Positions 27,272 through 43,884 of a stretch of DNA of 64,000 nucleotides are shown piece by piece. Position numbers and translations under genes: made by a program. A model generated the notes under the pieces. The model saw nothing but the letters and a program-made list of their open reading frames with translations. It was not told where the DNA came from and searched no databases. The stretch comes from a virus. The stretch is taken from the IMG/VR virus record IMGVR_UViG_3300034524_000181, positions 1-64,000 of that record; one strand, 5' to 3'. How positions within the stretch are numbered: position 1 is the stretch's first letter; the number at the start of each line of letters is the position of its first letter.

Positions 27272-27769
27272 TCACTTAAGCGGCTCAGTAATTTCACCTG
27301 ATTCAGGGTCTACGGTTATTACGTCTTCACTGACAGGTTCAGTATCATGGCCTACGCGGGTACTGAATGCTTTGACCTGTTCGGAAAGCTTGGCTATCAG
27401 TGCATATTCGTCAGCGGTCAGATCCCGATCTACTGCAAACTGAGCTTGGGAATAGGTGATACCGCTTGAATTGGTCGCCTTTTTCAAAGAAAAGCGAGTA
27501 ACAACGCTGTTTGATTTTTTGCCTTTAGAAAGCAGCCTTTTGATGTAACGAGAGAACTCTTTCAACGATCCTGTGGGCAAAGAGAGTATCAACGGGAAAA
27601 TCTCCCCTTCACGCAGTACATATATCCTGCGGCGGTTCTTGCAAGCTTTGCTGCCGTTTTCCCCCGAACCAAACTGATTATATGGACATTTGGCACAGCT
27701 TCCTCCGGGGTCTCCTTCGCCGGTTATACCATCAAAGCTTCCGCAATCCGGTGGGTTACTGCCTCCGGT
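27272..27769 (-). pseudogene. 5'-truncated Cys-rich phage replication-module protein
   Basis: Phage-like frame [14 protein letters not shown]...[11 protein letters not shown]...ACKNRRR with no cognate start; abuts ilvB DNA. Confidence 0.7.
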
Positions 27770-28744
27770 ATGCCTGTAGCAACTACCTTAATGGGCTTAG
27801 GCGGTTTTCCTTCAACCCACCCCTTGTATACAGGATTGGTTGGAATGCATGGTACAAAAACTTCAAACCTTGCGGTTTCCAATTGTGACTTATTTATTGC
27901 TGTCGGCGCAAGGTTTAGTGATAGGGTAATAAGCGATGTAAAAAGATTTGCACCCAATGCAAAGATCATGCATATTGACATTGACCCGGCCGAAATAGGA
28001 AAAAATATTACTGTCCAGTATCCGATGGTTGGGAATATTAAAAAAATACTGCACAAACTAAATCAGATGATTGATGAAAACTAAAGAAAAGAATGGATTG
28101 AACAAATTCAACTTTGGAAAGAGCAGTATCCGCTCTCCTATGATAAAAATTCATCATTAAAACCCCAGTTTATCATAGAAAAAATATATGAGCTTACAGA
28201 AGGAAAGTCCCTTATTACAACGGAAGTAGGTCAAAACCAATTGTGGGCTGCCCAATATTATAAATACACCGGACCCAGGACCTTTATATCCTCAGGCGGG
28301 CTAGGAACCATGGGTTATGGCCTCGGAGCATGCATTGGAGCACAAATTGGCAGACCGGATAAAAAGGTATTTAATATTGCAGGGGACGGAAGTTTCCGCA
28401 TGAACTGTAATGAACTTGCTACAGCTGTTGAATACAAATTACCTATTGTAGTGGTAATATTAAATAATCACGTACTTGGAATGGTAAGGCAGTGGCAGGA
28501 TCTCTTTTACGGCAGCCGTTTTTCATGCACTACCATCGATAGGGGAACCGATTTTGTAAAGCTTGCGGAAGCCTATGGCGCGAAAGGAATACATGTTACC
28601 AGCAATTATGAAGTGGAGGATGCAATAAAAGAAGCACTGGCGTCATCTGGTCCGGTAGTAATAAATTGCGAAATAGACAGGGATGAAAAGGTATTTCCAA
28701 TTGTACCACCCGGTGCACCCATTGTGGAAAGCATTGTTGAATAA
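27770..28744 (+). pseudogene. ilvB: Acetolactate synthase large subunit, 5'-truncated, with in-frame TAA at 28082-28084
   Basis: [33 protein letters not shown]; both ORF pieces are in one frame. Confidence 0.88.
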
Positions 28745-28768
28745 AATAATAGTCAAATTAAATAAACC

Positions 28769-28806
28769 ATAAGGGGCAGACACAGTTGTCCGTCCCTTAT
28801 TTTTTA
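28769..28806 (+). terminator. Intrinsic terminator after ilvB
   Basis: ATAAGGG..CCCTTAT stem plus T-run. Confidence 0.7.
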
Positions 28807-28873
28807 TGCATTTTAACGAGGTAGGTAGGACATAGCCATATATTTTTTTTGGCGCACAAAAGAATTCAAAAGG

Positions 28874-28902
28874 TTGCAATCTCTTATAAATAAAAGTATA
28901 AT
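28874..28902 (+). promoter_or_regulatory. sigmaA promoter for the corA leader
   Basis: TTGCAA-17-TATAAT. Confidence 0.75.
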
Positions 28903-28971
28903 ATCATTAGGTAATTAAATAAATTTTTAAAATAAAAAAACACAAGATTTAAGTAAAGGATGGTGATGTTA

Positions 28972-29124
28972 ATGGATACGGATCCTTATCCGAACCAAAG
29001 CAGTATGTATAGAAGTTTTTGCAAACAATATACATACGAGATGTATAAAAAAATTCAAAAGGGTTTGGCAGAGGAAGAGTATTTTTTGACATTGCCAGAA
29101 ATAATTTACTTTAATACCGTATAG
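28972..29124 (+). CDS. Putative 50-aa leader peptide (MDTDPYP..., MgtL-like) upstream of corA
   Basis: AAGGA/GGTG RBS, ATG...TAG; 3' part complementary to a downstream anti-SD segment. Confidence 0.6.
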   Translation: MDTDPYPNQSSMYRSFCKQYTYEMYKKIQKGLAEEEYFLTLPEIIYFNTV

Positions 29125-29250
29125 TGGTGGGTTAGGTTGTCAAAAAGCTACTCTTTCTCGTCATGCACAAGTTAAATGCACTTTAAATGATGTAGTCAAT
29201 AGATCCACGAACTGCAATTTAAAACAGACTAAGAGAATGGGGGTAGCAGA

Positions 29251-30183
29251 ATGCTATGTGTATACAAGACGATAGATGGAAAGATTCAAGAAATGGACAG
29301 GATTGAAGAGGGTTGCTGGATTAATCTAGTATCTCCGACTGAAAGTGAGATTGATAGCGTAGTGCAAGCACTTAATGTAGATCCCGGCTTTTTGAGAGCT
29401 GCGTTGGATGATGAAGAGGCATCGCGAATTGAATCGGAGGATAACCAAACACTTATTATTATCGATATTCCATTAGCGCAACAAGATGAGGATACAATTT
29501 ACTTTTCCACCATACCCTTAGGTATAGTTATTACTGATAAAAATATAGTTACCATATGTTTGAAGGAAAATTCCATAATTAATGAATTTTCAAATGGTAT
29601 TGTAAAGTCCGTTTATACGAATATGAAGACGAGATTTGTCCTGCAGATATTCTTTAGAGTTGCAACCCGGTTTTTACAGTATCTTAAGCAAATAGATAGA
29701 ATAAGTAACGAAGTGGAGAATCAGCTTCATAAATCTATGAAGAATAAGGAGCTAATCCAACTGCTTGGACTAGAAAAAAGCTTGGTTTACTTCTCCACAT
29801 CCTTAAAAGCTAATGAAATTACAATGGAAAAGATTCTAAGAGGTAGAACTATTAAGCTTTACGAAGAAGATCAGGACTTGTTGGAAGATGTAATTATTGA
29901 GAACAAGCAGGCTATCGAGATGTCTAATATATATAGCAGTATATTAAGCGGTATAATGGATGCCTATGCATCTATAATCTCAAATAATTTAAATATAGTA
30001 ATGAAGTTTTTAACATCCGTAACGATTGTACTGTCTTTGCCAACGATGGTAGCGAGTTTTTATGGTATGAATGTTGAGCTGCCGTTTCAGCATTCGCCCC
30101 ATGCCTTTTTGTTTACCATATCGTTGTCCCTTGTATTGGTATGTACAGCTACATTCATTTTGGTAAAAAGAAAAATGTTTTGA
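29251..30183 (+). CDS. corA: CorA family Mg2+/Co2+ transporter
   Basis: C-terminal two TM helices with YGMN signature. Confidence 0.93.
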   Translation: MLCVYKTIDGKIQEMDRIEEGCWINLVSPTESEIDSVVQALNVDPGFLRAALDDEEASRIESEDNQTLIIIDIPLAQQDEDTIYFSTIPLGIVITDKNIVTICLKENSIINEFSNGIVKSVYTNMKTRFVLQIFFRVATRFLQYLKQIDRISNEVENQLHKSMKNKELIQLLGLEKSLVYFSTSLKANEITMEKILRGRTIKLYEEDQDLLEDVIIENKQAIEMSNIYSSILSGIMDAYASIISNNLNIVMKFLTSVTIVLSLPTMVASFYGMNVELPFQHSPHAFLFTISLSLVLVCTATFILVKRKMF

Positions 30184-30189
30184 AAATAA

Positions 30190-30342
30190 TTGACTTTTTA
30201 GGAGATTTGACGTATACTATTGATTAAGTTAGTTTAAGATGAGTTGAGTAATTGTATAAGCTGAGATGAGTTTAGATGAGATGAGCCTATAACCGAGTTT
30301 TTTGAAATAACAGCGGTAGGGTTTTTCGTCCTACCGCTTTTT
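30190..30342 (+). promoter_or_regulatory. Promoter plus TRAP-type attenuator leader (11 NAG triplets) plus terminator; regulated gene absent
   Basis: TTGACT-17-TATACT; AAG/TAG/GAG triplets at 30226-30285, mostly 2-nt spacers; AGCGGTAGG..CCTACCGCT-T-run. Confidence 0.7.
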
Positions 30343-30349
30343 GTATTTT

Positions 30350-31834
30350 GGCTCTTTGTCAATAGTTGGGGTGGGATTTTTTGCAATCCCGCTCCATTAC
30401 TATTTTTAGCCCTAATTTTGTGTTATGAATGAGATGGATAGAGATATACGTGTTTTAGGGTGCACTTAATAAACCTAGCTAAAATGTAGGCTTTTTACAG
30501 GTATTCACTTTTAAGATGTTTACCTAGTACAGTGAAGAATCCTATTGCGAAATCTATAAAAGTTTTTAAGTCCAAAAGATATTCGCTTTAACACCTTGAT
30601 CTTATTGTTGAAACCTTCAGTTGGGCCGTTAGTATAACCATATTTAAAAGCATTTTTAATTTCTTTATGCCATCTTCTATATGTATCTGCACACTTCTCA
30701 AACTCTGGTATTCCAGAGCTTTCTGCATTTTGAATCCACTTAGCTAATTCCATACATTGGTAGGAATATTTATCGCTTTGGCAGATTTCATAAAACCATT
30801 CTTTAAGTTTATGGGCAATACGTAAGTCATCATTATATAAAAGCATTAAATCAACAGCTTCTTTATTCTCATCCTTAAGTTTGTGATAGCGGGTTAAAAT
30901 CAGTTTTCTACTCCGTTTATAGTATTTTCTAAGAGTAGTAGTCATAGATTTCTGTATGCGTTTTCTCACATTTTCAATAGCCCAAGTTACATGCCTAATA
31001 AAGTGGTATTTATCAATAATAATTATGGCTTTAGGGAAAAATACTTTAGCTAAATCAACGTAAGGTTGCCACATATCACATACAAAGAATTTAACCTTAT
31101 TTCTTTCCTCACGAGAAAATCGCTTGAAATAACTCACAAGATCACTTTGACATCTATCAGGAATAATATCTAAAACTTTGTTCTTTTCGCCATCAACAAG
31201 AATACATTGATACTTTCCAGTCTCTGCATTACCCTTAAATTCATCAATACAGAGAACCTTAGGTAGTGTAGGAATACCATAATTAATATGATTAAAAATA
31301 CGAATAACAGTAGAAACAGAAACATTAGCAGATTTAGCCACAGAAGTTAGACTAGTTAGCTTAGTAAGCTCTTGGCAAACAAAAAATGCTAATCGATTAG
31401 TCATGCGTTGATAACGAGGCAGAAAGTTATATGACTCATAAAACCTCTTTCCACAAGAGCAAACATACCTTCTTTTGCGAAGTACAAGGTAGGTATGCTT
31501 AAACTGTAAAGGTAAATCCTTAATTGTTTGTTCTCTATAATCATGAATTCTAGAGGTTTTAGAGCCACAAGCAGGACAAGTATGTTTTCGTGGCTCTGTT
31601 GTAATATAGATCTTAACAAAAGAATCACCATGTGATATTTTAGTTACTTTAATCCCTTTTAAATTTAATAATTGTGTGATAAAATTAGATTGCACTTGTG
31701 AATAAACCTCCTTTTTATGTTTGTTTGAGCAATTAACATTTTAGCAGGTTTATTTCACGAGTGCATTTTATTTTTAGGGAAAAATAAATGTTGGAGTACA
31801 TTTTTTTATACACCCCAACATTTATTATAGATCC
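30350..31834 (-). mobile_element. ISL3-family insertion sequence
   Basis: 24-bp imperfect TIRs GGCTCTTTGTCAATAGTTGGGGTG / GGATCTATAATAAATGTTGGGGTG; no direct target duplication. Confidence 0.9.
30520..31695 (-). CDS. ISL3 family transposase
   Basis: CPACG zinc finger, IDEF, CDMW, DKYH, EGFNNKIK. Confidence 0.93.
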   Translation of the reverse strand: MQSNFITQLLNLKGIKVTKISHGDSFVKIYITTEPRKHTCPACGSKTSRIHDYREQTIKDLPLQFKHTYLVLRKRRYVCSCGKRFYESYNFLPRYQRMTNRLAFFVCQELTKLTSLTSVAKSANVSVSTVIRIFNHINYGIPTLPKVLCIDEFKGNAETGKYQCILVDGEKNKVLDIIPDRCQSDLVSYFKRFSREERNKVKFFVCDMWQPYVDLAKVFFPKAIIIIDKYHFIRHVTWAIENVRKRIQKSMTTTLRKYYKRSRKLILTRYHKLKDENKEAVDLMLLYNDDLRIAHKLKEWFYEICQSDKYSYQCMELAKWIQNAESSGIPEFEKCADTYRRWHKEIKNAFKYGYTNGPTEGFNNKIKVLKRISFGLKNFYRFRNRILHCTR

Positions 31835-32074
31835 TTTTTACATTCGCCTAAAGTTAATGGGTATGAGCAACTACAGATATTTATTGAGCCGAAAGGTACC
31901 CACCTTGTCAAAAATGATAGTTGGAAAGAAGATTTTTTATTGCAACTTGAGTCAAATGCGATTCCTATAGTTAAATTTGCAGACGACAATAATTACAGGA
32001 TTTGGGGATTCCATTTCTTTAACAGGGATTTAAGACGTAAAGAGTTTGATGAAGATATGAACCGACTTTTATAA
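31835..32074 (+). pseudogene. 3' remnant of a type III restriction endonuclease (Res)
   Basis: 79 codons ...QIFIEPKGTHL..DSWKEDFL..., cut exactly at the IS end. Confidence 0.7.
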
Positions 32075-32194
32075 TATATCGCATTGATATAAGTTATTGA
32101 TAAGTTTTTATTTGATTTACATCCATCCTGTATCCTCAACCCCCTATAAAAAAGGGGGTTATCTAATCTGGTAACTCAACTATTAATTTTCAGG

Positions 32195-32457
32195 GTGGTT
32201 GATATGTTCCCGTAAACAATAAAATAAGGGTTTCCTGACATTGCCACATCCGGCAAAGTGGCATGGAAAAAAGCTAAATGTCTGGAAACCCTTTATTTAC
32301 AAGCTTTTCAGTTCTTTATTTCTCCACCCTTGACATCAATGTCACGCACTCCACATGGCTCGAGAGGATAGAACGAATGTCATTTGAGTATGTCCGTTCT
32401 CGGAAACATATCCACTGCATTTTTGGCACTATCGGTAGACGGGAACATGTCAACCAG
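32195..32457. other. Cluster of rlmD(rumA)-derived attachment half-sites, including probable attR of prophage B
   Basis: Minus strand HVECVTLMSRVEK* (32357-32316), AVDMFPRT (32418-32395), LVDMFPST (32457-32434); plus strand VVDMFP*T (32195-32218). Confidence 0.72.
32221..32298. repeat. ~22-bp inverted repeat downstream of the rlmD 3' fragment
   Basis: AAATAAGGGTTTCCTGACATT ... AATGTCTGGAAACCCTTTATTT. Confidence 0.75.
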
Positions 32458-32494
32458 CTATAGTCTGCTAGTTAGATAGAATTTCAATAATTTT

Positions 32495-33110
32495 TTACAA
32501 ATCAAACAAATCATAAACAGGTGGTTCGAGTCTATCCCAGTAGTCTCCTTCAGCTTCAAACAAAGTTGCTATTCCAAACTCTATTGCACCGAATTCATTA
32601 CGTTTGTATTCTTCCCAATTATCCCATGCTTCAGGGTTTACAACAATATTTTCACTAATCATGGGTAACAAATTATTGATATATATTTTCTTCTTTTCTT
32701 CTGGCAAACTCAAGAGTTGCTGTTTATACTTTGCAAATAAAGCATCATTTTCCTTGAGCCAAGATATAATGCAATATGTTTTCTCGCCTTCTGGAAACAC
32801 CATAACAAAAATATGCTTTGCTGAAACATTAGGATTTAGCAAGTTTTGTATTTTGTTCCCTTCCAAATCATGTGTCATAGCTTCAAAACCAGTACCCGCA
32901 AATCTAACTGGTTGATCAAACTCCCACACAACACTAGAAAGCACATCATAGTTACCAGTCAATAAAGCAGTATCAAAGATTTTTTTAACATTCTGAAAAT
33001 CATCAATTGCCATATGCATTCCACGATATGGATTATCTTCATCTGGTATATCTGCTAATGACGGTTTTATTTTAAACATGTACCTTTCTATGTTAACAAC
33101 TTCTTGCTTT
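32495..33110 (-). pseudogene. C-terminal part of the interrupted SEC-C domain protein
   Basis: Frame KQEVVNIERYMFKIKP... joins in frame to ...EYHKK from 36132-36587. Confidence 0.75.
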
Positions 33111-33120
33111 GAAATGAGTC

Positions 33121-33165
33121 ATAAAGCAACTTCACTTTCTTTATTGAGAGCGAAGTTGCTTTTGT
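33121..33165. terminator. Bidirectional intrinsic terminator after the ATPase
   Basis: AAAGCAACTTC..GAAGTTGCTTT stem. Confidence 0.75.
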
Positions 33166-33203
33166 TTAATTTAGGTTTTTGAGGAAAACCAAACTAAAAT
33201 ATA

Positions 33204-35741
33204 CTAACTGTTTTTATTTAAGTTCATATTGTTGAAAATTTTTACAATTTCATACCAAAGAACTGATACAGCTGCAATACCTACGGCTATAAAGAACTGT
33301 GATAATGATAATGGTGCAAGATTTAGAATTCTGTTAAGAGGAGTGTAAAGCATTAACAAAAGACCTGCAACAGTACCAATAATAACAGCCCACATAACTT
33401 TATCTTTAATTAGATATTTCATCGTCTTAAATGCATTATCATAATTTGAACTGTTTACTTGAACTAAAAATAAATTTGCAATCATTATAATACTAAGTCC
33501 CATTGTTCTCGCCAATTGTGGATTTTCAGGTTGTTGTTTAATAAGCATATAATATGTTCCAAAAGAAGCTATGAATATAGCCAGCCCCTGTAGAATACTT
33601 TTTGTCAATACTCCAGCTGTAAGAATTTTTTCATTAGGATCCCTTGGTTTTCGATCCATTATGTTACTTTCAGCAGGCTGACGTTCTAAAACAATAGAAC
33701 AAGTTGGGTCAATAATAAGCTCTAAAAGCACAACATGCACAGGAAGCAATAAAAGACTTGCAGGACTAATATTTAAAAGAGGTGCAAACAGTGATGCAAA
33801 TGCAATAGGAATATGAATAGTAAATACATAACCTATAGCTTTTTTGATGTTATCATAAATTCTTCTTCCATCTTCAATTGTATGAACAATTGTTGAAAAG
33901 TTATCATCCATCAAAATTAAATCAGCAGCTTCTCTTGCAACCTCAGAGCCACGCTTGCCCATTGCAATTCCTATATCTGCATATTTAAGAGCTGGAGCAT
34001 CATTCACACCATCACCTGTCATGGCAACAACTTCACCATTTTCCTTAAATGCTTTAACTATGCGCATTTTATGTTCCGGCAAAACTCTTGAAAATATATT
34101 TGCATCATGGACACGTTCCATAAGTTCAGAATCTGTCATATTGTTCAGTTCATCACCAGTAATAATATTATCGCTGTTTTTCATTCCAATTTGTTTTGCA
34201 ATGGAACTTGCCGTGATTCCATTATCACCAGTAATCATTACTACACGAACCCCTGCTTTATTACACATCTTGATATCTTCTTTCACAGATTCTCTTGGAG
34301 GATCAGCAAGACCAATTAAACCTAAAAATGTTAACTTGCAATCAGTAATATTATCAGGAATGTCAGATTCACTCTTTGGATTCATTGTACCAACAGCTAT
34401 TACTCTTAAACCTTCCCTTGACATTTCATTTATTTTATTTTCAATTTGCTTTCTTTGTTCGTCTGATAATTTGCATATAGTCAATATACTTTCAGGCGAA
34501 CCTTTTGCTGCAATAACAATTTCTCCATCATGTCGCCAAACATGCCCCATCATTTTAAGTTCATTTGTAAATGCATATTCGGATATCAGTTCACCACCAA
34601 ATAAATGGTCTTTTGAAATTCCAATGCTTTCACAATGTAAAAGCATTGCCTTCTCCATTGGGTCATATGCATCTGTTTCACAGCCAAGCCCCATAATTTC
34701 ACATAAGTTATAATTATCATCATCAATTGCCCAAGTATCCTGAACAGCCATTTTGTTCATTGTAATCGTACCTGTTTTATCTACACAAAGAACTGATACA
34801 GCACCTAATGTTTCAACAGAAGAAAGCTTGTGAACAAGAGACTGTTTTTTAGCAAGACGCCATGCACCCATAGATAAGAACACTGTCAATATAACAGGAA
34901 ATTCTTCAGGTATCATAGCCATTGCTAAAGTTATTCCTGATAAAATACTTTCAATAATTCTATCTGTAAATTTATGATCCGGAATATTGAAATAAATTAT
35001 TACTGTAACAAGAATAAATAAAATACCTGCTATTATTGCACATGTCTTAACAATGCTGTTTGTTTGCTTTTCTAAAGGCGTTGGACTGTCTGGAGCAGAT
35101 GCTACATTAATACCTATTTTACCATACTCTGTATTAGAGCCTATTTTATCTACAAGAATTGTAGCACTTCCTTGCGTAACGAGAGTACCTGCATAGCAGT
35201 AATCCTTGCGCCAATAATCTGTATTATTTTTATCGGCATTATCAACAGTCACTTTCCAAACACCTACAGATTCACCTGTAAGAGATGATTCGTCAACACA
35301 AAGATCACTTGCCTTGATAACCTCACCATCAGCAGGAATTTTAACGCCTTCGTTGATTATCATTAAATCAGTTGGGACTAAGTCTTCACTTAAAATTGTC
35401 TGCTCTTTTCCATCTCGAATAACTATTACATGTGGAGCTGATAAATCTTTAAGTGCATTTAATGTTTTGTCTGTCTTCCATTCCTGAATTATTTCTATAC
35501 TGATGATACCAATTACAAAGATTAGCATAATCACACCATCTCGTGGTTCACCTAATATAAAATAGATGATTGATGCAACAATTAACAATAAAAACATCGG
35601 CTCTAAAACAATGTGAATAACCTTGCTAATAAAACTTTGTTTTTTTACAGTTGCCAGTTCGTTTTTACCAAACTGTTCCTGCAACTTTTTGGCTTGCTCA
35701 CTTGTCAAGCCTTCTAAATTTTGATTTTTTTGTTCTGTCAT
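33204..35741 (-). CDS. Cation-transporting P-type ATPase (P2-like)
   Basis: TGES, IPEEFP, DKTGT, KGSPE, GDGVNDAPAL. Confidence 0.93.
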   Translation of the reverse strand: MTEQKNQNLEGLTSEQAKKLQEQFGKNELATVKKQSFISKVIHIVLEPMFLLLIVASIIYFILGEPRDGVIMLIFVIGIISIEIIQEWKTDKTLNALKDLSAPHVIVIRDGKEQTILSEDLVPTDLMIINEGVKIPADGEVIKASDLCVDESSLTGESVGVWKVTVDNADKNNTDYWRKDYCYAGTLVTQGSATILVDKIGSNTEYGKIGINVASAPDSPTPLEKQTNSIVKTCAIIAGILFILVTVIIYFNIPDHKFTDRIIESILSGITLAMAMIPEEFPVILTVFLSMGAWRLAKKQSLVHKLSSVETLGAVSVLCVDKTGTITMNKMAVQDTWAIDDDNYNLCEIMGLGCETDAYDPMEKAMLLHCESIGISKDHLFGGELISEYAFTNELKMMGHVWRHDGEIVIAAKGSPESILTICKLSDEQRKQIENKINEMSREGLRVIAVGTMNPKSESDIPDNITDCKLTFLGLIGLADPPRESVKEDIKMCNKAGVRVVMITGDNGITASSIAKQIGMKNSDNIITGDELNNMTDSELMERVHDANIFSRVLPEHKMRIVKAFKENGEVVAMTGDGVNDAPALKYADIGIAMGKRGSEVAREAADLILMDDNFSTIVHTIEDGRRIYDNIKKAIGYVFTIHIPIAFASLFAPLLNISPASLLLLPVHVVLLELIIDPTCSIVLERQPAESNIMDRKPRDPNEKILTAGVLTKSILQGLAIFIASFGTYYMLIKQQPENPQLARTMGLSIIMIANLFLVQVNSSNYDNAFKTMKYLIKDKVMWAVIIGTVAGLLLMLYTPLNRILNLAPLSLSQFFIAVGIAAVSVLWYEIVKIFNNMNLNKNS

Positions 35742-35856
35742 AATAAGTTACCTCCAGTTTTTGCTTTTTAAGCATTATTAAGATAGCTCTATGGCATTGC
35801 AAATTCTAATTATATGTTTCAAATAAGTATAAAAAAACACACCTATGAAACATTTT

Positions 35857-35946
35857 ACTGTCCCACAGATGTGAAATAATTCAATCTGCTGCTGTTTCCA
35901 GCCCGGCCCCACGAACAATATTGTTCATCGCCTGCTCAGTTTGTAC
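35857..35946 (-). ncRNA. NiCo (czcD) riboswitch
   Basis: GUACAAACUGAGCAGGC...GCCGGGCUG..CAGCAGCAGAU...AUCUGUGGGACAGU; overlapping terminator hairpin plus U-run at 35830-35873. Confidence 0.85.
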
Positions 35947-35980
35947 CGTAGATTTATATGCAGTGCAAAGAGATTTTTAT

Positions 35981-36009
35981 ATTATAATATATGAAAATTA
36001 TTTTGTCAA
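35981..36009 (-). promoter_or_regulatory. Consensus sigmaA promoter of the riboswitch-ATPase unit
   Basis: TTGACA-17-TATAAT. Confidence 0.85.
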
Positions 36010-36116
36010 GTGCAATTCAATTTCCATTTTATATTATCCAATAATCAGGTGCTGATTATATATGTTGCAATTACAGTATTTGTTTACATTTTTTATATTA
36101 AAGTCATATTGTTGCC

Positions 36117-36587
36117 TTATTTAAGAATTATCTTTTTATGATATTCAATGGCAAAACATCTATATGTATAAAGGAAAATATGCTGTATGCTTTTGTCAAA
36201 CATTCCATCCTCGATAGGTTGAAATACCGTCTTATCGTGATATCCACAAAATCCTGTAAAAACAGTTGCTTCTTTTCTACCGTACACAGTCATTGGCGCA
36301 AATGGATTGTCCGATTTTGGACAAGGCATATACACTATACCATTAGAAGATAAACGCTTGATTATTTTATTGTTTTGGATTGAATGTGCCCCGATTATTT
36401 TTTCAGAGCATTCGTCTGATTTAGGATGTAGACATCTTTTAATTCTCGATTCTTTTCGCACTTTTTTATAGGTTTCTAGAAGATTAAGTGGATTAGAATA
36501 GTAAACATCATCAGCTTTTCCAAGACAACATTTTTTATATTTTTTGCCGCTACCACATGGACAAGGATCATTTCTTCCTATTCTCAT
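36117..36587 (-). pseudogene. N-terminal part of the SEC-C domain protein
   Basis: [29 protein letters not shown]; last four residues come from the insert. Confidence 0.8.
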
Positions 36588-36695
36588 TATTTTTCACCTT
36601 CATTCGCAAATAGTACTAAACAAACCGTCGTGTCTTTCAACAGATTCTGAACTCCAGTTATCCTAGTGTCTATAATAACATCTGTACTCAAAAAT

Positions 36696-37514
36696 CTATA
36701 TTTCCTCACAACTGGTTATTTGCTCAGGCGGAATATCTATTTCGTCTTTTATATATAAGAACACTTCAGAAATCAAATTATTATTAGCTCGATCAATCGC
36801 ACGGCTTACCATCCACCGTTTTATATGTACAATTTCCTCATCTGTCAGTTCTTCTTGAGTATCATTTAAGTCAAAATTGAACCGATGGATTTGATCTATC
36901 GTTGCGTAAAAATTCACTTTATAGCCTTTACTACGTTTAGCCCATTCTTCCTCCATCTTTTTCAAATCCGGAAAAGCAGCGGAAAGTTTCATCAAAAATT
37001 CTGGTCTTTCATGAATATTTGTTCCATAGGAAAAAATATCATCATTCATCATAAATCCATTAACGCAATAGTCGTAATAAACTCGATGTGCAATCGGCTT
37101 GAGATATTTCTCCGGAGACATTGAATAATCATTATTCCTATACCAATCATAATCCACATTGTACTCTTTACCTTTATAGAACAATAAACGTCTTTCCACA
37201 TCAAAAAATACGCCATTGGATTTTAGCATTCTGCTTAATAGAGTATCCCCAGATAAAACCTTTTGGAGATTCTTTAAGCCTTGACTATGAATTTCTCCGC
37301 ATTCATCTAAAGACCCTATAACATGAAATCCCCATATTCTAATAGTATCCATATTGATGTTATTTACCTTTGCTGCATTGCGATCCCAAAATTTTTCAAA
37401 CTCATTATTACTATTGATAATAAGCTCTTCAATATATTCTTCTCCAGACATATTAAAGAAAGTAAGTAAAAAATCATACGCTCTATCAGGTGTTCTCAAG
37501 TCAAAATCATACAT
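36696..37514 (-). CDS. Hypothetical cargo protein (possible ART-like fold)
   Basis: 272 aa, AT-rich; FH(x8)I(x3)GL motif. Confidence 0.55.
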   Translation of the reverse strand: MYDFDLRTPDRAYDFLLTFFNMSGEEYIEELIINSNNEFEKFWDRNAAKVNNINMDTIRIWGFHVIGSLDECGEIHSQGLKNLQKVLSGDTLLSRMLKSNGVFFDVERRLLFYKGKEYNVDYDWYRNNDYSMSPEKYLKPIAHRVYYDYCVNGFMMNDDIFSYGTNIHERPEFLMKLSAAFPDLKKMEEEWAKRSKGYKVNFYATIDQIHRFNFDLNDTQEELTDEEIVHIKRWMVSRAIDRANNNLISEVFLYIKDEIDIPPEQITSCEEI

Positions 37515-37535
37515 TTAACTACCTACCTTCTATAA

Positions 37536-38036
37536 TCATAGCTTTGGTTTTGGCAACTTAATATTAGTGTTACCACCAAGAATGCTTGCGCCTATACCAA
37601 CAACTGTAAAGACTGCCAATGTGCCTAACGAAATCATTCTCCAGTTAAATCCTTTGTTTTCTGTATCCTTACTTTCGGCCATTTTTGCAATTTCCATCAT
37701 TTTTTCGATGTAATATTTTTTCTCCTCGAAAGGCAAGTCACCCTTCGCCAAACAAGTCTTTAAGGCATCAATGACTTCATTGTATATGTCATAGCACTGC
37801 TTGCTACTCGCTGAATTTCCATCCAGTGTTTTTTCCATGACACTTCTATAATCTTTCAGCACTTCCAAAGCCATTTTTGCAAACTCTGGGAATTGCTCTA
37901 ACGCTTTCTTTGCAACTTCTGGCTCCATATTCTGCAGCATGGATGCAAAAGTCATAATTTTATCTTTTGTAATATACCGAAAATCCGGAATATTCAATTG
38001 TTGTAAAACTTCTCGTTCTGTTAATTGATTACTCAT
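37536..38036 (-). CDS. Hypothetical protein with C-terminal TM helix
   Basis: 166 aa; hydrophobic MISLGTLAVFTVVGIGASILGG. Confidence 0.65.
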   Translation of the reverse strand: MSNQLTEREVLQQLNIPDFRYITKDKIMTFASMLQNMEPEVAKKALEQFPEFAKMALEVLKDYRSVMEKTLDGNSASSKQCYDIYNEVIDALKTCLAKGDLPFEEKKYYIEKMMEIAKMAESKDTENKGFNWRMISLGTLAVFTVVGIGASILGGNTNIKLPKPKL

Positions 38037-38077
38037 TATGTAATCCCCCTATCTTATTAAAGCATAAATTTGCTCCC

Positions 38078-38590
38078 TTAATCACAAAAACTCGATTTGT
38101 ATTTCATTAGCGTATCTTCAACCTCATGCCAGATAGTTACCGTTTCACCGTCATCCTCAAATACTTTACCGTGACTTTTAGGTCCATCCAACTTCATCTG
38201 TGAGTAATTATTCTTAAAAGTTGGCACGTACAGTTCCGGGTTGTTTTCTTCACTGCATAAGCGTTCCATCATATCTATGGTAGCACGACCTGTGGCGGCA
38301 ACCGCCTTAAAATAAGCACGGATGATCTTGTGGTTATATTGATTCGACTTTATAGCCCATACTGGGATTCGTTGATTTGCTTTTCCGTAAAAATCCCTGT
38401 TTGTATCTTCATTCTGTCTTGCTATTGTTTTTGGGTTATAGGCTTGTGATGCTTTTTCAAAGGTTTTTGCAATATACCAACGCATACAGCTTTCCACTGC
38501 AACATCTTGTATTTCATTTGTTAAATTCAATGCGATGCAGAATTTCTCATACACATCTGCATCCACTGTAAAGGTCACGCTCTTATTCAC
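38078..38590 (-). CDS. Hypothetical protein with RHH-like N-terminus
   Basis: SVTFTVDADVYEKF; GTG start after GGAGG. Confidence 0.6.
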   Translation of the reverse strand: MNKSVTFTVDADVYEKFCIALNLTNEIQDVAVESCMRWYIAKTFEKASQAYNPKTIARQNEDTNRDFYGKANQRIPVWAIKSNQYNHKIIRAYFKAVAATGRATIDMMERLCSEENNPELYVPTFKNNYSQMKLDGPKSHGKVFEDDGETVTIWHEVEDTLMKYKSSFCD

Positions 38591-38725: not shown

Positions 38726-40297
38726 TCAATTTTCAATGTCTATACTAATGCCTGACTTAAATTCCACTTCAACCCTGCCATCGTGAATCGTAACTTTTTC
38801 AATAAGCCTCCTTACTAACTGTTCATCATATTCCTCTAACTCGCAGGATTGCTCATTAAAGAAATCAGTCATTTCAGCTATTCGTTGCCTTTTCCCTTCT
38901 CGCTCTGCATTCTCTACAAGTGCATTTTGCTTTAACTCCCGAAGTCGATAAATTTCATCAGCCACATCTTCATAGTCATTCTTGGATTTTGCTTGTATAA
39001 GGAGCTGTTGTTGTAACTCTTCCAATTTTCTATCAATATCATCGGTGGCATTATCATTTTTTTCATTAAGTACGGTAGCTATGTTTTTCTGCAAGGTTGA
39101 GAGGAAAGGCTCTTTGTTAGCCAAAAGTTCGTTAATAGCCCTGACCACTGCTGTCTGTAATGTCTCCTCGTTTATGGTAGGGGCCGTACATTCAGATCCT
39201 TTTTCCTCTAAACGGCTGACGCATCTCCAAACAATAGACTTGTAACCTCGGTTATTCCAGTGTACTCGTCGGTAAATATCACCGCATTGCCCGCAGTAAA
39301 CAATACTCGATAAGGCATATTTACTACTATAGACTCGCTTTTTACCGCCCTTACCGCCTCGGAGATTCGCTCTTCGAACCATCTCTTCTTGAACCTGCAT
39401 AAAAAGGTCACGGGGAATGATAGGTTCATGGCTGTTTTCCACATAATACTGGGGAACAATACCATTATTCTTGACACGCTTTTTGGAAAGGAAGTCAACC
39501 GTATAGGTCTTTTGCAAGAGTGCATCCCCGATGTATTTTTCATTCTGCAGTATCTTTTTCAGTGTTTCAGGTCTCCATTTTGCTTTGCCTGCCGCTGTTA
39601 GAACACCGTCTGCTTCCAGTCCTCTTGCTATTTGTAAAAGGCTCGCACCCTCAAGGTACTCCCTGTAAATCCGTTTAACAACCTCAGCACCCTCTGGGTC
39701 AATCACCAATTGCTTATTTTCATCTTTGGTGTATCCAAGGAAACGCTTGTGGTTGACCTGAACTTCACCTTGCTGATAGCGATACTGAATACCCAGCTTA
39801 ACGTTTTGGCTTAAGGACTGGCTTTCCTGTTGGGCAAGGGATGCCATAATGGTCAGCAGGACTTCACCCTTAGAATCCATGGTGTTTATATTCTCTTTTT
39901 CAAAGAACACAGCGATGTTTTTATCCTTTAACTGACGGATGTATTTAAGGCAGTCCAACGTGTTTCTGGCAAATCGGCTTATGGATTTTGTGATGATCAT
40001 GTCAATATTGCCTGCCATGCACTCTTCAATCATGCGGTTGAATTCATCACGCTTTTTGGTATTTGTACCTGTGATACCGTCATCCGCAAAAATCCCTGCC
40101 AATTCCCATTCCTTGTTCTTCTTAATATAATTTGTATAATGCTCAATCTGAATGTCATAGCTCGAAGCCTGCTCCTCACTATCCGTTGAAACACGGCAGT
40201 AAGCAGCCACTCGAATTTTGGGTTTGCTTTCACTATTTTTATTATTTCCGACTCGTTTAATTGCTGGAATCACTGTTACATTCCTACTTACCGCCAC
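38726..40297 (-). CDS. Large serine recombinase
   Basis: [16 protein letters not shown], zinc ribbon CGQCG. Confidence 0.93.
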
Positions 40298-40300
40298 TGG

Positions 40301-40714
40301 TTACACCTCACTTTCTATCAAACTGTAAGCATATTCTGCCTGCTTGTATGGGTCTTCATATTTTTGCACCAGAGACTTTGCTTTGAACTTTACAGGATAA
40401 TCCGTTTTTGGTTCATCTTTAGGCTCCCATATCCTTCCTAGCTTTTCTGCTCGTTTTCGTCTTTCTACTCTGGCTTTTTCAAAGGTCTCCTCATCAATAA
40501 TTGGAGGGTAGAATTCATCGCCAAGGTAGTGCTTATTCTGCAACATCTTACTTACTGTGGCATGGTAGCAGTCTATCCCAGCTTTTTTAGCAGCACCCTT
40601 CAAAGAAAGTCCTGCCAAGTATCCTGAAAATAATTCTTTTACCCGCTCCGATGCTATTTCATCCACAACAGCCTTACCGTTTTCAATTCTATATCCATAG
40701 GGTATGTGACCCAT
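40301..40714 (-). CDS. Small recombinase-domain-only protein
   Basis: PYGY...LQNKHYLG...PPIID..F; no catalytic domain. Confidence 0.85.
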   Translation of the reverse strand: MGHIPYGYRIENGKAVVDEIASERVKELFSGYLAGLSLKGAAKKAGIDCYHATVSKMLQNKHYLGDEFYPPIIDEETFEKARVERRKRAEKLGRIWEPKDEPKTDYPVKFKAKSLVQKYEDPYKQAEYAYSLIESEV

Positions 40715-42280
40715 CTAATTCACCAACCTTTCCTTCAATGTGATTCCGCATTTTAATTCAAATCCAACTATCTCTCGTGAATAAACAATAATCTTCTCTG
40801 CGTAATTTTCAAACAGCTCATCCTCATAGGTTTTGAGCATTTTGGACTTAGTGGTAAACTTAAGCAGACGGTCAACCTCGTCTACTTTTGCAAAATTGCC
40901 ATTGATGGAACGAGTAAGTTGATCCTTTTCAGCAAGAAGTCTTTCTCTTTCTGCTTCCAGTGAAATCTTTTCTTTATTAAACAGAGCAGGTTCCAGATAT
41001 CCTTTGGCCAGTAAACCTGTCAGCATCTGGCTCTGCTCCATGTTGTTTTCAATCTTAGTTTCCAACTCTTCAATTCTGAGAAAACTCGCTGCACTATTCT
41101 GGTTACGTAACCCATCCAAAAGTGGTTTTAATATGAACTTCTGACCGAAAATGAGTTTATTCATCATCGTAACAAATGCCGTCTTTATATCATCATCTCG
41201 AATGAACTGCATAGAACATTCCGTTATCTGGCTTATATGCTTGCTACAGCACCAAGCAATGTATTTTCTTGTTCCAGACGAATGAATCCGTCTTTTAAAG
41301 GTACTGCCACATTCCGAGCAGATAATTTTGCTGGAGAAAGAATATCGGTTTTGATATTTGTTATTGCGCTTTTCGATGCCTTTTTCCTTTGCTCTCTGAG
41401 TGAGAATGGCATCCACAGCTTCAAAATCTTCATGGCTGATAATTGCCTCATGGTGGTTTTCTACTAGATACATATTTTTCTCACCATAATTGGTGTGCCT
41501 GTTAAAATGGCGGTCAGTATAGGTCTTTTGCAAAATAACATCGCCAGTATATTTTTCATTGGTCAGAATCCCTCGAATGGTAGTAGCCGTCCAACGACCA
41601 CCTCTTTTTGATGGAATACCCTTTTGATTAAGATCATCTGCAATTTTCTGTGTACCTTTTCCCGATAATACCTCTGCAAAAATATACTTCACAACTTCAG
41701 CCTGCTTAGGGTTTATCACCATTTGACCATCAATGTTGTCATAACCATATGGTGGATATGAAATCTTAAAAGTTCCGTTCTGAAATCGTCTTTGAATTGC
41801 CCACTTAGTATTTTCCGAAATGGAAATGGACTCACTTTCTGCAAGCCCACTTAATATAGAAAGCATCAACTCACTTTCCATTGATTGGGTATTGATATTC
41901 TCTTTCTCAAAATAGATGTAAATACCCAGGTCCAACAGTTTACGAACCATCTCCAAACAATCCGTAGTGTTTCTCGCAAACCTACTAATGGACTTTGTAA
42001 TAATTAAGTCAATCTTCTTATTTTCACAATCTGACAGCATTCTGAGAAGTTCCGTTCGGTTTTCTTTTTTGGTGCCACTAATTCCCTCATCATAATACAA
42101 GCCAACATACTCCCATTCTGGGTTTGCCTTTATGTAAGTCTCATAATGGGATTTTTGTGCTTCTAGGCTCACTAACTGTTCATCACTGTCCGTAGAAACA
42201 CGACAGTATGCGGCCACTCGTAGTTTAGGTTTGATAATCGATGCAACCTTATTTCCTTCTATTTTCGTTATCTTTTTCAT
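40715..42280 (-). CDS. Large serine recombinase
   Basis: [26 protein letters not shown]. Confidence 0.93.
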   Translation of the reverse strand: MKKITKIEGNKVASIIKPKLRVAAYCRVSTDSDEQLVSLEAQKSHYETYIKANPEWEYVGLYYDEGISGTKKENRTELLRMLSDCENKKIDLIITKSISRFARNTTDCLEMVRKLLDLGIYIYFEKENINTQSMESELMLSILSGLAESESISISENTKWAIQRRFQNGTFKISYPPYGYDNIDGQMVINPKQAEVVKYIFAEVLSGKGTQKIADDLNQKGIPSKRGGRWTATTIRGILTNEKYTGDVILQKTYTDRHFNRHTNYGEKNMYLVENHHEAIISHEDFEAVDAILTQRAKEKGIEKRNNKYQNRYSFSSKIICSECGSTFKRRIHSSGTRKYIAWCCSKHISQITECSMQFIRDDDIKTAFVTMMNKLIFGQKFILKPLLDGLRNQNSAASFLRIEELETKIENNMEQSQMLTGLLAKGYLEPALFNKEKISLEAERERLLAEKDQLTRSINGNFAKVDEVDRLLKFTTKSKMLKTYEDELFENYAEKIIVYSREIVGFELKCGITLKERLVN

Positions 42281-42332
42281 CGCCTCACCTCCTTCTTGGT
42301 AGGTCACATATTACCTCTGAACGCCCAGTATA

Positions 42333-42694: not shown

Positions 42695-43396
42695 TTAACC
42701 ATACTTAATAAAGGCATCGGTAAAGCCAGCTTTCTTAGCTTTGGCAAGTTGCGCTTCCGCATTGGCTTTTACAGAATAGGCACCGATTTGAACACGATAA
42801 TATTTCTTTCTCTCCTGTTCTGCAGGCTTCTCTCCTTCACTTAATAGCTTTTTCACATCCGCTCTGAAGGTATCCATGCTTTTTCCATGCTTTGGAAACC
42901 AGTTTCTCGGATCTCCATGATTACTTGCGATTCCTTTTTGATATCCTTCATAGTGGCCAATAACATCTTTTTCGGTCAAGTTATAGAGCTTGCAAAGATA
43001 CACACACAGTTCTACCGCTTCCTTATAAACTGCATTAAAATACGAGGCATCGGTCAAACCGTCCTCGCAGATTTCAAAACCAATATGAGTATCATTTGCC
43101 TTTCCACCTGTATGCCATCCACGATGGTCCCATGGCAGAGTTTGATAAGTGGCAATTGAACCATTCTTAAGCTTTCCAATGAAAGCATGGACGCAAACCT
43201 GTCTTCCGTCAGGTCTATCCTGATTCCAGTGATTATTGTACTGATTTACACCTAATAGACCATCATCCGGTCCAACGTATCTACGAAGATAAGGATTGTT
43301 GGCACCGGTGCTATGAACCATGATACCTTTCGGTGTAATCTTTTTTCCTGCCTTATAACATGCATTTTCAGTCAGAATAAGTTTTCTTAGATTCAT
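42695..43396 (-). CDS. Endolysin (Amidase_2 + SPOR)
   Basis: MVHSTG, GFEICE, HGDP; YRVQIGAY. Confidence 0.9.
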   Translation of the reverse strand: MNLRKLILTENACYKAGKKITPKGIMVHSTGANNPYLRRYVGPDDGLLGVNQYNNHWNQDRPDGRQVCVHAFIGKLKNGSIATYQTLPWDHRGWHTGGKANDTHIGFEICEDGLTDASYFNAVYKEAVELCVYLCKLYNLTEKDVIGHYEGYQKGIASNHGDPRNWFPKHGKSMDTFRADVKKLLSEGEKPAEQERKKYYRVQIGAYSVKANAEAQLAKAKKAGFTDAFIKYG

Positions 43397-43803
43397 TGTT
43401 CCTTACCTCCTTTATTATGCAACTGAACAAGAATATCTTTTAATTTTTCTGGTATTGGTAGTCCTAATCGACCAGCATTTTCTAGCATAGATACACCTTC
43501 ATTGGAGCAATAGAAAAAGATGATAGCAGTCCGAAGCACGCTCCCATCTCCAATCAGATTTGTATCAATCAAATGTCCAACTCCAACTAGAATAAAAATA
43601 AGTACTTTTTTGAATATGCCCTTAAACCCTATTTCACTTGATAGTTTCTTTTCAACAATGGCACACATGACACCGGTGATATAATCAGCCACCATTAATG
43701 CCACTAATGCATATAAAAATCCATCAAAACCTCCTAAAAACCATCCTAAAAGTCCACCAAGTACAGTAAACGCAGTTTGTATCCAACTCCAAATTTCCTT
43801 CAT
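43393..43803 (-). CDS. Holin
   Basis: DYITG, S..GFKG..KK, NEGVSMLEN. Confidence 0.9.
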   Translation of the reverse strand: MKEIWSWIQTAFTVLGGLLGWFLGGFDGFLYALVALMVADYITGVMCAIVEKKLSSEIGFKGIFKKVLIFILVGVGHLIDTNLIGDGSVLRTAIIFFYCSNEGVSMLENAGRLGLPIPEKLKDILVQLHNKGGKEQ

Positions 43804-43884
43804 TATTTTTACCTCCTTCATGATTGGTGCATATATAAAAAGAGTGTCTGCATTATCGCAAACACTCTTGGTTCAGTGTGTTAA

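Follow-up and report, generated by a model that had tools for sequence, protein, structure and literature searches.

A probable head-to-tail joint between two rlmD-targeting phage elements whose ends carry conserved attB-like arms

The window, by which we mean the whole 64-kb stretch analysed here, is the first part of an 87,059-nt provirus record that begins inside one prophage (A) and ends in the cargo of an element holding a second one (B) (Table 1). The two prophages lie in the same orientation and are 68-70% identical in nucleotide sequence over their structural genes. Prophage B is a tailed prophage with two large serine recombinase (LSR) genes at its lysis end (38726-40297 and 40715-42307; amidase and holin at 42695-43821), each encoding Resolvase, Recombinase and Zn_ribbon_recom domains. 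These genes stand 6.3 kb from arm 1, the nearest piece of a short array of attachment-site-like sequences, with about 6 kb of cargo between. The small ORF that separates them (137 aa, 40301-40714, minus strand) resembles in size and place an ORF between the recombinase genes of a Streptococcus suis phage record. At its other end (record 81.7-87 kb), element B carries a Lamassu system (LmuA, LmuC, LmuB), an HTH gene and a type I methyltransferase (L004:17678-19998, L005:14-3059), and this Lamassu and type I restriction-modification cargo is transcribed convergently to the phage genes. Ion-transport genes are recurrent as end cargo, with a P-type cation ATPase and CorA in the window and TrkA/TrkH in the relative L251 (L251:1356-3372).

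Table 1. Features in the window, by position and strand, labelled according to the reading favoured here.
Feature	Position	Strand	Description
Prophage A	1-27777	-	Truncated by the start of the record; same orientation as prophage B
Left-hand cargo of element A	27778-32119	.	ORF remnant, ISL3 transposase (30520-31695), CorA (29251-30183), 5'-truncated TPP-enzyme gene
Two copies of a ~22-nt repeat (GTTGAG...GATTAGAT type)	32120-32180	-	Terminate the P' module
Inverted arm, GTTGATATGTTCCCGTAAACA	32198-32218	+	attB-type half-site facing the core; fixed part of the left-end (P') module
Long hairpin, then U-rich run	32222-32300	-	-36.4 kcal/mol, z -4.46; between tail and inverted arm
Surrogate rlmD tail, CAT GTG GAG ... 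AAA TAA (HVECVTLMSRVEK*)	32316-32357	-	Contains the P' half-site; left end of element A
Shared 9-nt core, CATGTGGAG	32349-32357	-	Inferred crossover dinucleotide CA at 32356-32357
P half-site of element B (GACAT, 15 nt, GAGC; 24 nt)	32358-32381	-	Directly left of the crossover
Arm 2, GTGGATATGTTTCCGAGAACG, VDMFPRT	32395-32415	-	Second attB-type half-site copy; 39 nt after arm 1, 31 nt before the P half-site
Arm 1, GTTGACATGTTCCCGTCTACC, VDMFPST	32434-32454	-	attB-type (rlmD 5'-arm-like) half-site copy; opens the conserved P (right-end) block of element B
Right-hand cargo of element B	32495-38590	-	194-aa unknown, P-type cation ATPase (33204-35741), SEC-C protein, three unknowns
Recombinase module of element B	38726-42307	-	523-aa LSR, 137-aa ORF with partial Recombinase domain, 530-aa LSR
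Prophage B	42333-64000	-	SHOCT protein, lysis, tail, head and terminase genes; extends to ~81 kb of the record

A sequence-only reading of this array had listed three rlmD-like 5' arms and one rlmD 3' tail within 260 bp, and all four pieces were verified at 32198-32454. It had also remarked that no rlmD gene lies nearby, and the corresponding domain (PF05958) is in fact absent from the entire 87,059-nt record. The separation of 39 nt that it gave for the minus-strand arms is correct from start to start, but its ~34 bp to the third junction becomes 37 nt when measured from the end of arm 2 to the CAT. On the minus strand, the order is arm 1, 18 nt, arm 2, 13 nt, P half-site, tail, hairpin and inverted arm, and the original list lacked the strong hairpin, the terminal repeats and the 24-nt half-site that separates arm 2 from the tail. 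The P half-site, as judged by eye, forms a dyad with ATGTC across the CA. The arms keep GAYATGTTYCC, four free letters and then AC, i.e. the pattern of the rlmD 5' arm (codons D-M-F-P-x-T), and the codon differences reported between them are real and sit at the free position. The 14-nt arm pattern GTNGAYATGTTYCC has three matches in the window against 0.00 expected from 100 shuffles; these are also the only three in the full record, where the reversed control pattern has none.

The hairpin is probably a terminator for a rebuilt rlmD, although a simple terminator scan of 31900-32700 listed none, the hairpin loop being too long for its rule. In the same interval, the two promoter-like matches were not above those in shuffled sequences, and a search of 31800-32800 against Rfam gave just one chance miRNA match, far under threshold. 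Two ORFs that run across the array (61 aa on the plus strand and 45 aa on the minus strand) were rejected as spurious: they are not kept in relatives, where the partners differ. A single coding frame through arms 1 and 2 was considered too, since their 39 nt make 13 codons, but this fits the window alone; relatives have spacings of 30, 32, 38, 41, 50 and 51 nt and stop codons inside the arms, which rules out a coding reading. The ~22-nt repeat (GTTGAG..GAYAG.TTAGAT) follows the inverted arm in two to three copies in the window and most P' modules, and may be the binding site of some protein.

The first LSR of element B is 58-69% identical to recombinases of rum-integrating Streptococcus phages, of Erysipelothrix phi1605 and of gut phages. 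Element B belongs with the rum/rlmD-targeting, paired-LSR phages of the Phi-m46.1/"SMphage" kind. Exchange takes place at the CA of CAYGTNGAG, within the HVE codons near the end of rlmD; the sequence-only reading had noted that elements with tandem serine recombinases integrate at the 3' end of rumA/rlmD. Phi-m46.1 integrates at the 3' end of rum, and the 18-bp core given in Table 3 of PMC4288039 overlaps the core in the window. PMC4288039 and PMC13651849 describe further common traits, namely a siphophage-type prophage, paired LSRs by the lysis genes, a target in the HVE codons, and variable cargo between the core genes and both att sites. To these can be added a recombinase identity of 58-68%. 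The hosts differ, being environmental Firmicutes here, and so does the cargo, which is ion transport and phage defence here and drug resistance in Phi-m46.1/SMphage. The ends are also unlike: the right end in the window has attB-type arms, which Phi-m46.1 lacks, and the left-end module is different.

A search with the 523-aa recombinase in viral contigs gave 163 related stretches, of which 80 loci were retained. Downstream of the recombinase gene, at a distance of 2.6-8.8 kb, 11 of these loci have two arms 38-50 nt apart, and two further ones have a single strict arm; a match in L030 is unrelated. The 66 loci where no arm was found mostly end too early to tell (their DNA stops 0-5.9 kb past the gene), but L067 extends 10 kb past it and has a P-CA site without arms. 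The stretch between recombinase gene and arm 1 varies from 2.6 to 8.8 kb and has unrelated content, and conservation begins exactly at arm 1 and ends at GAGC-CA, beyond which each locus has a different rlmD-like tail. The 12 distinct sites that have the spacing of the window are 29% identical over the 60 nt upstream of the block, 83-100% within it and 39% beyond a point 12 nt past the core. Arm 1 is 96% identical and the P half-site 93%, in a comparison where the arm cores were fixed by the search pattern and the remaining positions were free. Order and spacing of arms 1 and 2 are kept at these 12 sites, mostly together with the codons, next to unrelated upstream cargo, and diverged versions of both arms are spread across about 12 spacer subfamilies.

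A scan of the collection for an arm with a half-site retrieved 54 stretches. Counted with the window, these make 49 distinct blocks, 28 of them true sites and 21 chance matches, the latter all without a second arm and without an HVE continuation. In all DNA examined, GACAT-N15-RAGC-CA occurs at 27 distinct sites. Two arms are present at 23 of these, three at one, a single arm at two and no arm at one. Identical P blocks found with different tails (L186/L198, L216/L219, L191/L230) diverge straight after the CA, which places the crossover at this dinucleotide. Two S. suis phage records contain a stretch with 89% identity to the block of the window. A deletion form was also observed (L042:16686-16900, L044:16697-16900), in which the spacer after arm 1 leads directly into the final codons of the tail, without arm 2, P half-site or core.

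The left-end (P') module can be recognized behind intact genes. In the L028 record, a complete rlmD of 465 aa ends in HVECVVLMSRVEK* and is followed by a hairpin of the same type, the inverted arm and two GTTGAG...GATTAGAT repeats; an Aneurinibacillus aneurinilyticus scaffold (L087) is 100% identical to it. Most of the 78 rlmD loci taken from genomes have diverse natural tails and lack the features of the module. The 21 distinct tails of element type are found after real rlmD genes of different taxa (9), after P half-sites (11) or after another end type (1). An inverted arm with at most one mismatch lies at +109 to +149 after the CA in 13 of the 21 distinct P' modules, and most have one to three copies of the ~22-nt repeat. 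Within one species, three empty sites (L234, L236 and L237) read AVDMFPRTGHVECVMLLSHK* and pass at once to a host gene, whereas an occupied one that is nearly identical upstream (L235) switches after CATGT to the surrogate tail, hairpin, inverted arm and repeats. These empty and occupied alleles of a single species imply that the element brings the module, which rebuilds the end of rlmD. The gene itself (PF05958) is present in one of five related records, a figure that says little because proviruses are trimmed and absence is therefore uninformative.

The same left end harbours another mobile element in some loci. A group II intron (Rfam RF02003, 88.9 bits) lies inside the P' half-site of the surrogate tail, right after ATTGATGT, at L232:563-696 (plus strand) and L223:268-401 (minus strand), and by eye the same insertion is present in L199, L231 and L070; several of the joints concerned are independent. 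This end of the mobile elements appears to be a homing site of the intron.

These two end modules meet in the window. The relatives of prophage A, with polymerases 97-99% identical, have DNA in common up to 27777. Seven close ones have about 9 kb of upstream DNA, and two of these (L242 and L251) carry a module 90% identical to 32118-32357 of the window, 7.5-8.2 kb upstream of the polymerase gene. In both, the module is joined at the CA to other partners, different in each; that of L251 is an LSR gene reaching the crossover, an arrangement described in PMC4701971 for single-integrase rumA elements. The contigs of four public runs, compared with 29500-35500, tell a similar story. In an isolate assembly (X9), the left half (29500-32357) and the right half (32328-35500) are present at depths of ~1190-1200 each, on different contigs with other partners, and their loose ends at 32357 and 32349 are the edges of CATGTGGAG; the second contig has more joint-like copies. 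Still other partners are found in X10 and X12, and the contig breaks of X9, X10 and X12 all fall within 32349-32357. Loose ends of other run contigs lie at 32448 and 32455, i.e. at arm 1.

Because each half of the joint has other partners in relatives and in run contigs, we consider it likely that the array is P(B)-CA-P'(A), i.e. the right end of element B, the crossover CA and the left end of element A. The 3' end of rlmD would then hold two elements, one behind the other and head to tail, with 32120-32454 as an attP-like hybrid joint. Element B, made up of prophage B, its paired LSRs and 6 kb of cargo, would end in the ~100-nt block of arm 1, A-rich spacer, arm 2, spacer and P half-site. Element A, with its prophage and cargo, would begin with the surrogate tail, the terminator hairpin, the inverted arm and two repeats. 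We infer a full array of the form rlmD-B-A-tail, of which the 5' part of rlmD and both outer ends lie outside the record. The sequence-only reading had already attributed the array to recombination by serine recombinases that act at rlmD. This part of it is supported, and a tandem joint involves more than one element.

The association of element A with the module is suggested by the sequence of two of the seven close relatives, and one may ask if there is a tandem at all. The module might instead be the long-fixed end of the host's rlmD, left as a relic, the array a plain attR of element B, and prophage A, 4.5 kb away, an insertion with no relation to it. The CorA and TPP-enzyme genes beside the module do look chromosomal, the module of X9 keeps its downstream DNA while the upstream partner differs, and prophage A abuts a truncated gene: the TPP-dependent enzyme gene (27700-28744) lacks its 5' third, is frameshifted and abuts 27777, where homology to at least 13 prophage-A relatives ends. 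Yet, two prophage-A relatives have the module as their left end and carry other cargo (TrkA/TrkH) in between, natural empty sites lack it, and prophage A is oriented as B, as a tandem requires. We thus regard this alternative as improbable.

Element A may be defective. The distance from module to polymerase gene is 7.5-8.2 kb in relatives, and in the window it is filled by 5.1 kb with the truncated TPP-enzyme gene, CorA and ISL3; in L251, TrkA/TrkH takes the place of this left-hand cargo. Several kb of early genes are probably missing from prophage A, and the ISL3 element may have brought about their loss. The first early gene of prophage B showed no similarity to the ORF at 27724-28056.

An artefact was also considered, since a contig could join unrelated genomes through end-module repeats that are common in the sample. 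In X12 and X13, 32113-32514 is covered 5-15 times as deeply as its flanks, and modules are therefore multi-copy in communities. However, the two sides of the joint have just 9 nt in common, and the runs of four studies, among which the source may be, contain 97-100% of the sampled 31-letter words of 31500-33500 (all of them in X1). Since words across the joint recur in this way, we find a chimeric assembly extremely improbable.

The tandem could arise because the attL rebuilt by an element remains open to another one. An element first in line would restore the complete rlmD reading frame with its P' module, and the resulting attL would still resemble attB, so that a further element could enter; the two may have arrived in either order.

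The origin of the arms is a separate matter. The sequence-only reading had taken three arms from different rlmD alleles as the record of repeated recombination with secondary sites, maybe in different hosts, and had proposed an integron-like capture or inversion of cargo. Arm 2 does correspond to the 5' arm of a natural allele, the arms differ in the codons at their free positions, and some relatives have stacked cassettes without recombinases. But the same arms, in the same order and spacing, stand at 12 sites with unrelated cargo, which largely refutes their formation by repeated recombination of this element, and at least two arms are found at 24 of the 27 P-CA sites. Nor is the inverted arm a separate event, given its fixed place in the left end of the neighbour (13 of 21 modules). 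All exchanges with partners in the relatives map to the single CA core and none to an arm, where no inserted DNA was found, and among the contigs of the four runs no joint with a change of strand was listed that would suggest inversion of a segment. The idea of a hotspot of cargo capture holds for the family, in which the same end modules bound recombinase-less cargo, but fails for the arms as points of capture; likewise, looking for arms outside rlmD in relatives reveals P and P' end modules that bound cargo and arms that are not themselves exchange points. We consider the repeated-recombination scenario very improbable. The conservation of arms as components of element ends across the family makes them inherited parts, not a log of recombination at this locus.

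Where these parts came from is partly suggested by their letters. Arm 2 is letter-identical to the 5' arm of the natural rlmD allele DMFPRT (L234-L237), and in L197/L056 the match to the natural allele continues through GGGCAT. R or S at the free position of DMFPxT is absent from all 71 other rlmD alleles, and no natural allele with the codons of arm 1 was matched in viral contigs, a result of little weight in a collection that seldom contains rlmD. By their sequences, the arms look like captured rlmD 5' arms, and such is probably their ancestry, even if a simple exchange between attP and attB does not explain how a 5' arm reached the phage side.

Their spacing has a period of about 10 bp. The spacers are A-rich and cannot be aligned among the about 12 subfamilies, but the 21 successive half-site distances taken from these cluster at 30-32, 39-42 and 50-51 nt, with 44 nt represented as well. 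The periodicity amounts to R = 0.79 at 10.5 bp (Monte-Carlo p = 2e-5 against uniform distances), a statistic to be read with the fact that subfamilies were grouped by eye and share ancestry. The arms are extra half-site copies at conserved, phased distances from the crossover site. Whether they act as accessory sites bound by the recombinase is, in our view, about an even question. Several observations run counter to a function: the right end of Phi-m46.1 lacks arms, as does one P-CA site (L067), and the same P' modules are also found joined to armless ends of other types (L125, L242, X9).

The arms could also have the same anatomy and be inert. They would then be fossils of ancient nested integrations, in which attL was fused to attR after loss of an inner element, and would hitch-hike within ~100 nt of a functional half-site. 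A captured attL would be expected to match a natural allele as arm 2 does, through GGGCAT in L197/L056, and the variation in arm number from zero to three and the functioning of Phi-m46.1 without arms also fit this view. It is harder to see why fossils separated by unalignable spacers of unequal length would keep an 11-nt core and the AC, why length would change in steps of ~10 nt, or why the arms would be nearer to the consensus than a number of genuine rlmD arms that the family uses (GATCAGTTT in L105 and L137, for example). Stripped-down cassettes also retain them. We regard inert arms as rather unlikely, if clearly less so than the alternatives discussed above.

The most far-reaching reading of the arms, at somewhat less than even odds, is that this clade of LSR phages has a complex attP. 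Its P side would have between one and three attB-type half-sites and its P' side a single inverted copy, with A-rich spacers in steps of a helical turn. These copies would bind extra recombinase subunits, and the wrapped complex would set directionality or synapsis and represent the minimal end for mobilization in trans of defence and transport cassettes without recombinases. As accessory sites, at about even odds, the arms would build a phased and bent complex at attP and attR, and at attL through the inverted arm. A subunit bound to an arm could offer its coiled-coil to the subunit on the adjoining P-type half-site. Such a complex could aid synapsis or directionality and allow recombinase-less cassettes with the same ends to move in trans.

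To our knowledge, the accepted model of large serine recombinases includes no accessory sites. A published description of such arms was not found in the literature searched, which returned the standard picture of simple sites under 50 bp. The serine integrases studied so far have sites of this kind, e.g. Bxb1 (PMC1470463).

Stacking of elements at rum has precedents. Tandem elements with three att sites are described at this gene in PMC5053989, and phage-ICE tandems in PMC13651849, where two phage integrases act as drivers and bind every att probe tested. In these streptococcal tandems at rum and rplL (ICE-ICE, ICE-prophage, phage-ICE), a second element enters an att site of the resident, which results in three att sites and an internal hybrid joint, and the parts can leave singly or together (PMC5053989 and PMC13651849). 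The tandem in the window would differ in joining phage to phage.

Some comparisons with better-known systems are informative. The composite SCC islands of staphylococci (at orfX/rlmH) and the CIMEs of ICESt1 are stacked units with the same att repeats, many of which lack recombinases and depend on a neighbour. The SCC target is the 3' end of an rRNA methyltransferase gene, as it is here, and CIMEs use tyrosine recombinases; the recombinase pair and the target gene are different in the window. In lambda attP, arm-type sites, and in res, sites II and III, are extra recombinase-binding sites by the crossover that control direction or topology by phasing and bends. These systems use tyrosine integrases or small serine resolvases, whereas the arms here are putative sites by large serine recombinases. 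The likeness to integrons is a loose one, limited to promoter-poor cassettes stacked at one site. The mechanism proposed by the sequence-only reading does not apply, because the enzymes are serine recombinases and the P and P' cassette ends are double-stranded sites for them, without a folded attC, attI or the tyrosine recombinase IntI.

Cassettes bounded by the end modules occur in several relatives. An Aneurinibacillus scaffold (G003; L173 = G003:1-11200) has three successive joints, which bound a 52-kb prophage, a unit of ~3.9 kb with one MkoC-like helicase gene and a unit of ~6 kb with a PDC-S14 gene, a candidate defence gene, and others. Eight ORFs of the two small units were scanned, and no recombinase is encoded among them. 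The last tail of the series is interrupted by an IS. Recombinase-less units of 1.8 kb and 3.7 kb were found in L009 and L042. In a S. suis phage record (MN270276; L176:1-6160), a recombinase-less block of 4.7 kb with erm(B), lnu(D) and an acetyltransferase gene directly follows rum. This resistance block is closed by a right-end block of the type seen in the window, whose arms have DMFP codons while the host gene has DLFP, which suggests import from a non-streptococcal source.

Overall, most of the puzzle posed by the array is known biology, i.e. tandem accretion at the rlmD/rumA hotspot, here with phage beside phage in environmental Firmicutes. The joint is of a known kind of element, and the new part, which we did not find described, is the conserved architecture of arms at the element ends. 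The streptococcal "rum" system belongs to a far wider family, with ion-transport and anti-phage cargo at both ends. Large serine integrases are popular tools for genome engineering because their sites are simple. If the arms are true accessory sites, the family would offer a natural LSR variant with built-in control in cis, and a complex attP, if confirmed, would overturn the view that serine integrases need just simple sites of ~50 bp. The conserved ends would then define what is required to mobilize a cassette that lacks a recombinase.
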